A DNA stretch of 22,254 nt from a virus. Lineage: Duplodnaviria; Heunggongvirae; Uroviricota; Caudoviricetes. Shown one piece after another: positions 21,001 through 22,254 of the stretch. Position numbers: made by a program. Every line of letters begins with the position of its first letter. Position 1 is the first letter of the stretch. Location of the stretch: the IMG/VR virus record IMGVR_UViG_2648501165_000020. One strand, 5' to 3'.

Positions 21001-22254
21001 TGCCGTTGAATACGGGGATGAGTTGACTGGTCATGATGACCTCCTTATTTGTTTAGTTTATAACCGCCAGTTAGTAGCTGGCGGTCGGGTGTCAACTGAG
21101 CCAAATAAGAAGCTCTGGGCATATTCCCCTTGCGGGTGTTGTATTACGCCTCTCCACCCGACCTTTGTACGGATGTAACTATGCCAAATTGCAGGCATAA
21201 AAAAGCCGCAAAGCTATCGGGTGCGGAGACCGCTTATTTGTTCAGTGCGGTCAGTATGCGATAGCTCTGGAGGATTTGTCAATCAGCGGAATATTGATGA
21301 ACGGGTAACGGTAAATGCCTCATCCAGAAAATTAACGCAAATTCGCATCGCAAACTTGCGTTAATTATCTGAAATATCAAGTTAAATCCCCTTAAATGTT
21401 TGGGGCACTATTGGGGCAAAATGTGGTTGTTTGGGGCATATTTGGGGCAAAAAAGAACGTATAAAGAACGGTGTAAAATTGATTTCTTCATGGTCAAAAT
21501 GAGGTGTAACAGATTGAAAAATATATGCTCTTGGACGATCTTCGGTAATTCTGTGTTTTTAATGCTTCATGGTTTCAATATGTCCGTACATGGAATAATA
21601 AAGCACCAGAACTTTAGCCATTTCTAACCACTCCTCGTGTTATCTCTATTCCGTAGCGATTCGCTACCACTTATTTAAAGATAAGACGTCCTTTTCAGAG
21701 TGCAAATTTCACAACCACTTATTTGATTTATAACAACTTTCACAAGCACGTAATTTTGTCGCAAAATGACACATTTTTATCTCATCGCGTTTTTTTAATC
21801 ATAAGAGCGGCTTATGGATAATTATTTGAGATGATATCTATTCTCGCTAAGAAGCTGTTGCAGGATATTACCAAACGCGGGTCTGCCCGCGTCAGTTCAC
21901 TAAGCTTAGTCCCACGTAGCGAAAATATGGCAGCCGCCATACGCCGCGTTAATTCTATGCAATATGATGTCTATACCCAGACGGAGGTCAGTAATGGCAA
22001 ACCATCGAGGCGGTTCCGGCAATTTTGCAGAAGACCGCGAAAGAGCATCAGAAGCAGGTAAAAAAGGTGGACAGCACAGCGGGGGTAATTTCAAGAATGA
22101 CCCGCAGCGCGCATCTGAAGCAGGTAAAAAAGGTGGNNNNNNNNNNNNNNNNNNNNTCAAAAAGTCATCACCGCCGGTAATCCCGGCGGTTTTCTGTTTA
22201 TGGCTCCTGATGAACAACTTCTGGCGGTGGAACGTCAACCAACTTTCTGCTTAA

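Follow-up and report, generated by a model that had tools for sequence, protein, structure and literature searches.

Four exact copies of the octamer TTGGGGCA near the right end of the Stx2 prophage Sp5 are, judging from their sequence context, very probably the arm-type sites to which the tyrosine integrase (Int) of Sp5/933W binds through its N-terminal (PF12167) domain. The stretch of DNA analysed (22,254 bp, hereafter the window) covers the attR (right) end of Sp5/VT2-Sakai, inserted in wrbA of E. coli O157:H7 Sakai, and its positions 21000-21700 are 100% identical to the VT2-Sakai (Sp5) right end in AP000422. The octamers sit on the int-distal arm of attP, the equivalent of the lambda P arm, which is part of attR once the phage is integrated in wrbA. 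A preceding sequence-only reading had placed integrase or accessory-protein sites here on a P′ arm; the arm-site part of that label stood, whereas the P′ part did not, since lambda attR carries the P arm (PMC4880445).

To locate the junction, the window was compared with uninterrupted E. coli genomes, which align only from 21568 rightwards (the wrbA 5′ end and ymdF), and with circular phage records, to which homology stops at 21584. The att site annotated in AP000422 (misc_recomb) corresponds to 21572-21577. The junction features are as follows.

21568-21584, no strand assigned: att core and crossover region (attR junction), from the start of host homology, the end of phage homology and the AP000422 misc_recomb

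21585-21627, minus strand: 5′ portion of wrbA, the host gene that the prophage interrupts (MAKVLVLYYSMYGH...), from reading of the sequence and the wrbA annotation in AP000422 and uninterrupted E. coli

Since host homology begins at 21568 and the att site lies at 21572-21577, the octamers stand 123-172 bp from the core towards the phage, in agreement with the 120-170 bp estimated earlier. The WrbA N-terminus is encoded on the minus strand at 21627-21570, and the wrbA promoter side is still joined to attR, leaving the truncated ORF MAKVLVLYYSMYGHIETMKH* (21570-21627, minus strand); host transcription would therefore run leftwards over the core and the arm sites towards ant. The repeats also fall within an annotated ORF of 75 aa at 21400-21627, named 'ORF-43/B44' by Sato; it was rejected as a gene because it spans the att core, which means that its C-terminus changes upon excision. 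Just outside the prophage, a 20-N run at 22138-22157 masks part of the repetitive ymdF CDS (KGG-repeat stress protein).

Scanning of the window confirmed the array of four exact octamers near the attR core, with start-to-start spacings of 11, 20 and 11, that the sequence-only reading had described. No further copy of TTGGGGCA was found on either strand of the 22,254 bp, and shuffled windows contained 1.06 copies on average and never more than 3, with 0 of 100 reaching 4. The octamer motif is different from, and unrelated to, the GTTTCAAYATGTC core. The four putative sites are listed below.

21400-21407, plus strand: arm-type site 1 (TTGGGGCA), opening the distal doublet; exact octamer, 8/8 in Fels-1

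21411-21418, plus strand: arm-type site 2 (TTGGGGCA), 11 bp from site 1; exact octamer, 7/8 in Fels-1 (gTGGGGCA)

21431-21438, plus strand: arm-type site 3 (TTGGGGCA), opening the proximal doublet and the second 31-bp unit; exact octamer, 7/8 in Fels-1

21442-21449, plus strand: arm-type site 4 (TTGGGGCA), 11 bp from site 3; exact octamer, 8/8 in Fels-1

In the O104:H4-type arm the last base of site 1 is changed from A to G, and the counterpart of site 2 in Rac is TGGGGCA (L011 1316). Tandem Repeats Finder gave no report on the octamer region, because just ~1.6 copies of the 31-bp unit are present in the window. In phage phi191 (NC_028660, L215), octamers 3 and 4 are each one G short (TTTGGGCA), which may reflect either an error in sequencing the homopolymer or two arm sites that are naturally weakened.

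The int side of the att site was read from intact attP, taken from the circular records of the sister phages Stx2 phage I (AP004402) and Stx1 phage (AP005153), in both of which int (444 aa) ends 22 bp past the core. The int side of attP contains a fifth exact octamer followed 11 bp on by cTGGGGCA, both in the orientation of the far-arm copies. This pair (TTGGGGCAcgtCTGGGGCA) is located at +64 to +82 from the core in the last codons of int, in intact attP as well as in 933W attL. The search for the octamer at the other att side and near int, proposed on the basis of the sequence alone, thus returned an 11-bp-spaced doublet at the int 3′ end.

Analysis of the complete 933W genome (61,670 bp) revealed that the motif is exclusive to the two att arms. 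Each of the 7 exact octamers, against 1.8 expected from composition, is found no more than about 210 bp from the att core; the far arm has 6 of them and the int arm 1, together with cTGGGGCA. The genome has four 11-bp-spaced pairs (at most 1 mismatch), all at the att arms, and the probability of seven sites all falling within 420 bp of a 61.7-kb genome by chance is ~7e-16. The two int-side copies in 933W occupy different reading frames. An inverted near-copy within int, ATGGGGCA (933W 186-193, L004), was rejected as an arm site, as it encodes the conserved catalytic-box Q-M-G-H. Inverted ATGGGGCA/TGCCCCAT is also present in Fels-1 int (L216 about 174-181) and in several unrelated int genes, and its resemblance to the arm motif is a coincidence of the Q-M-G-H codons.

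Comparison with related prophages showed that the octamers are kept in other wrbA-site phages and also in relatives that use other core sites, as listed below with the identity of each Int to that of 933W.

Sp15/VT1-Sakai (Int 66%, core yehV): far arm with three sites, TGTCCCATacaTGCCCCATtgaTGCCCCAT, 115-145 bp from the core; int side TGTCCCATgtaTGCCCCAT, 54-72 bp before the core, at the int 3′ end

Fels-1 (Int 66%, different core site): far arm with four sites, 30/32 octamer positions as in Sp5; int side TTGGGGCActcCTGGGGCA

Rac of E. coli K-12 (Int 44%, core ttcA): far arm GGtGGCA-11-TGGGGCA-19-aGGGGCA-11-aGGGGCA, 110-155 bp from the core; int side TTGCCCCCaatTTGCCCCA, 3′ of the intR stop codon, non-coding

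Yersinia phage YP3 (Int 62%, core site not identified): int side TGCCCCATcacTGCCCCAA; far arm searched for within 2 kb and not found

In Sp15, Fels-1, YP3 and Rac, 11-bp-spaced (A/T)TGGGGCA sites adjoin the int stop, and in Sp15, Fels-1 and Rac (not YP3) the far-arm sites are found 110-170 bp out although the surrounding DNA has diverged; in Fels-1 the sequence that flanks and separates the conserved blocks is only 34-43% identical to Sp5. The orientation of the sites relative to int is identical in Sp5, Sp15, Fels-1, Rac and YP3. A further Sp5-like far arm of the 92% identity class (L247, IMGVR_UViG_2700989510_000008) is joined after ...GCTTCATGG to sequence that is neither wrbA nor the attP int side, and this junction could represent another integration site or a rearrangement.

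The genes beside the far arm bear on the suggestion, also made in the sequence-only reading, that the octamers are iteron- or operator-like sites at which a phage regulator controls the leftward ant operon. The features on that side of the array are as follows.

20405-21034, leftward: ant, antirepressor (AntA/AntB plus P22_AR_C), from domain matches

21282-21253, minus strand: sigma-70-like promoter facing ant, TTGACA-18-CATACT, from its sequence pattern

The octamers do lie upstream of leftward ant, towards which the sigma-70-like promoter faces. However, 366-415 bp separate them from the start of ant, they precede its candidate -35 by about 118-167 bp, and the interval between them and ant holds what looks like a leader of ant's own, of the sRNA-Xcc1 family. 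Moreover, the motif recurs by int in phages with unrelated far-arm neighbours, the adjacent genes being ant in Sp5, dinI in Sp15, ynaE/ynaM in Rac and none annotated in Fels-1. The known 933W operators and ori iterons are other sequences located elsewhere in the genome, and no extra octamer was found in them or anywhere else in the 933W genome. Since the motif follows int and not the neighbouring ant, the iteron reading was rejected, and we regard it as highly improbable.

The element between the promoter-like site and the ant start (21034) is a full-length match to Rfam sRNA-Xcc1 (RF02221; 21075-21163, minus strand, 69.1 bits vs a gathering threshold of 53, E 5.8e-12), which looks like a structured leader or sRNA of ant.

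To estimate how widely the motif follows int, we turned to viral contigs. The heptamer pair TG[C/T]CCCA-N4-TG[C/T]CCCA is present in 32 of 34 distinct int 3′ tails from Ints 68-100% identical, with constant heptamers and variable 4-nt spacers. An exact-doublet scan of the contigs returned at least 120 loci, where a few dozen are expected by chance. Eighty of these, selected by the exact doublet alone, were examined; 30 encode an Int homologue (23-100% identical), and in 29 of the 30 the doublet is no more than 80 bp from the int 3′ end. As the int-side doublet overlaps the CDS in most relatives, its conservation could partly be at the protein level ([A/V]P-x-x-P-[Q/H]); the int-side doublet of Rac is non-coding, which indicates that the constraint there is on DNA and not on protein.

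When five distant Int relatives (27-32% identity) were sampled regardless of the motif, the TGCCCCA doublet was found in 0/5, two of these records ending at int; the motif is therefore clade-specific rather than universal. One of the five, Pseudomonas phage KT1 (L219, about 1930-2300; Int 28%), has TGCCCTA/TACCCTA by the int stop and TGCCCTAaattTGCCCTA (11-bp spacing) past a tRNA-like core, and thus displays the same architecture with a one-base motif variant on both arms. Three Firmicute-type integrases (L094, L112 and L132) have an N-terminal Arm-DNA-bind_4 domain (PF14657) and a TTTGGGGCAgatTTGGGGCA doublet just 3′ of the int stop, with a second pair, TTTGGGGCGagtTTGGGGCA, about 170 bp beyond the first in L132. 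Two Pfam arm-binding families are thus associated with one arm motif.

The integrase itself consists of an Arm-DNA-bind_2 domain (PF12167, residues 15-78, E 6.3e-26) followed by a Phage_integrase tyrosine-recombinase catalytic domain, and PF12167 is also present in the Ints of Sp15, Rac, Fels-1 and YP3. Integrases with PF12167, those of the Stx2a phage and Gifsy-2 being named, have been classified as the 'IntBPP-1 subgroup' of arm-binding-domain recombinases and termed putative (PMC8138268). A PDB sequence search with Int retrieved catalytic-domain relatives only and no structure of the arm-binding domain. Across the proteins of 933W, Fels-1, Sp15 and YP3, conservation within Int is highest in the arm-binding domain (73-88% vs 59-64% for the rest), which fits a fixed arm motif with changing core specificity. 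Excision and circularisation have been documented for Sp5 and Sp15, as has integration of an Sp5-like phage into K-12 wrbA (PMC2669165). Taken together, the int-side doublet, the conservation in relatives and the PF12167 domain support the original proposal of integrase or accessory arm sites, and from these data we infer that it is Int that binds the octamers.

The alternative protein is the excisionase (Xis) next to int, a DUF1233 protein, which might polymerise head-to-tail on octamers of the attR arm to make the bend for excision, with the arm sites of Int lying elsewhere. In its favour, the attR arm has direct repeats in tandem at intervals of about one helical turn, which recall lambda X1/X1.5/X2 (PMC4880445), the homologous XisR of Rac shifts an attR fragment (PMC4632033), and DUF1233 adjoins int in all close relatives. 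Because Int and Xis co-occur in the closest relatives, those relatives alone cannot tell the two proteins apart. However, motif, spacing and orientation are repeated on the int-side (attL) arm in 933W, Sp15, Fels-1, YP3 and Rac, whereas the Xis sites of lambda-type systems occur on the P arm only. In addition, distant exact-doublet loci keep PF12167 without a consistent or clear DUF1233 ORF by int: in the six distant proteobacterial doublet loci scanned, PF12167 was found in all and the upstream ORFs were not consistently DUF1233. Xis also diverges faster than the arm-binding domain: 933W and Sp15 share 47% identity in Xis but 80% in that domain (Xis of 933W and Fels-1, 63%), while the motif is fixed. 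Binding of Xis to the octamers is accordingly considered unlikely, though less so than an operator of ant, and Int remains the favoured ligand.

Three other blocks are found between the octamers and the core.

21453-21470 (21453-21459 and 21464-21470), plus strand: two AAGAACG copies in direct orientation (AAGAACG-tata-AAGAACG), sharing the 11-bp phase of sites 3 and 4; candidate DUF1233 Xis sites

21507-21519, minus strand: IHF-like site TTTCAATCTGTTA (one mismatch to WATCAANNNNTTR), from a consensus scan (L001 2039-2051 mapped to the window); candidate

21523-21544, no strand assigned: conserved core-proximal box ATATGCTCTTGGACGATCTTCG (22 bp, containing GATC, a Dam site), from conservation

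The AAGAACG doublet noticed in the sequence-only reading is indeed present. The 7-mer occurs 7 times in the window vs 2.5 expected, a number reached by 3 of 100 shuffles; being so common, it does not make the pair significant by itself, and the pair remains a candidate. Of its 19 positions, 15 are kept in Fels-1 and all 19 in the 92.5% identity class; Sp15-class arms have TTCGTCGAagTTCGTCGA at the corresponding position, and the pair is absent from the int-side arm. Its conservation parallels the similarity of Xis (Fels-1 63%, Sp15 47%), hinting at a candidate excisionase (DUF1233 Xis) site, and its position is where lambda has X1-X2, beside P2 (PMC4880445).

As for the candidate IHF site, IHF-like matches occur in the locus at chance frequency, and TAACAsATTGAAAAATA is common to the IHF-like region and the Rac far arm. 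The ATATGCTCTTGGACGATCTTCG box is near-invariant in Sp5-class, Sp15-class and Fels-1 arms though cores and flanks differ (21/22 in Fels-1 vs 43% in the flanks; 17/18 in Sp15). It co-occurs with octamer arrays, 20-25 bp from the core, in two att families, has copies in L010 (about 391-413) and L214, and is not present in Rac.

The doublet and its spacer together form a 31-bp unit of about three helical turns, and the number of units differs between phages: 2 in Sakai-type and Stx1 phages, 3 in 933W and Stx2 phage I, and 4 in Min27. The far arm consequently carries 4, 6 or 8 octamers across isolates. Both 2-unit and 3-unit forms were found among 216 E. coli genomes with this arm, and Sp15-class arms are likewise variable, with 3 or 4 sites. 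Such variation (2, 3 or 4 units among Stx phages), and the fact that Sato's GenBank records label the unit merely as repeat_region, 'arrangement g / gg; region III', speak for a functionless array generated by replication slippage or tandem duplication of the 31-bp 'arrangement g' repeat. However, the two units of the window match at 19/31 positions, and 16 of these 19 matches are the octamers themselves. Fels-1 and Rac keep the octamers while the spacers diverge, and copies are found on the other arm as well. We therefore give a functionless array the smallest probability of the readings considered, a negligible one, and retain the octamers as arm sites of Int.

A broader, joint reading is put forward only tentatively, and we think it rather doubtful: that the number of far-arm units (2, 3 or 4) tunes Stx-phage integration and excision, and that the (A/T)TGGGGCA doublet, deeply conserved across arm-binding integrases, is the recognition element of many PF12167 integrases (Proteobacteria) and some Firmicute Arm-DNA-bind_4 integrases. 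Should the broad conservation of the doublet be true, att arms and prophage ends would become predictable from sequence alone.

By analogy with lambda, an Int protomer would be bivalent, its C-terminal domains acting on the core at the wrbA crossover and its N-terminal domain on TTGGGGCA. The contacts of the N-terminal domain would lie 123-172 bp from the core on the far arm and 64-82 bp from it on the int side, and bends between arm and core would let one Int protein bridge both. Candidate bending sites are the IHF-like site, the GATC box and, in excision, the AAGAACG pair with Xis bound to it; the division of the sites between integration and excision and the identity of the accessory sites are provisional. 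With doublet members set 11 bp apart and a 31-bp unit of about three helical turns, all sites would lie on one face of the DNA.

In lambda, the arm-type sites P1 and P2 (P arm, attR) and P′1-P′3 (P′ arm, attL) are bound by the Int N-terminal domain, and the IHF, Xis and Fis sites lie between the arm sites and the core (PMC4880445). Sp5 resembles lambda in having a short motif on both arms far from the crossover, with adjacent copies about one helical turn apart, a far arm with two separated groups and a candidate RDF site by the core-proximal group, an Int with an N-terminal arm-binding domain, and an attR arm that is the int-distal arm. It differs from lambda in the motif, (A/T)TGGGGCA, and in the family of the arm-binding domain, PF12167 ('IntBPP-1 subgroup'). 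Unlike in lambda, moreover, the Sp5-type far-arm sites are doublets of variable number, the int-side sites are inside the int CDS, and the arrangement is known here from sequence alone.

A closer likeness is offered by Rac IntR/XisR, which has a homologous Int (44%, PF12167) and Xis (DUF1233), an 11/19/11 arm layout and a doublet by the int stop. XisR of Rac shifts a 294-bp attR fragment and not the adjacent fragment, no individual sites having been defined (PMC4632033). Rac differs in its ttcA core, in a degenerate first site (GGtGGCA) and others reading aGGGGCA, and in having no GATC box. Phi24B is likewise an Stx phage with a tyrosine integrase and a long attP (350-427 bp minimal), but its integrase is unrelated, uses other integration sites and is reported to be IHF-independent (PMC7581858); nothing transfers from it to Sp5/933W Int.

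In the literature searched, we found no binding or mutational experiment on this integrase family and no definition of its arm sites. Searching paper texts for the octamer string returned primer noise only, and the papers searched on the Sp5/933W, Sp15 and Rac integrases gave only core att sequences and 'putative' integrases. Arm sites as such are of the expected, ordinary kind, and the motif for this integrase family is apparently undescribed. The arm-site reading accounts for the unexplained 'repeat_region' in the GenBank records, and the doublet provides a sequence signature for finding prophage ends.

Arm-type sites make phage integration directional and regulated, and Sp5/933W and Sp15 represent the principal Stx2 and Stx1 phages found in E. 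coli O157:H7. A motif with fixed geometry supplies a concrete map of attP, attL and attR for experiments on Stx-phage mobility, in which the repeat copy number can be linked, testably, to the frequency of excision or lysogenisation.
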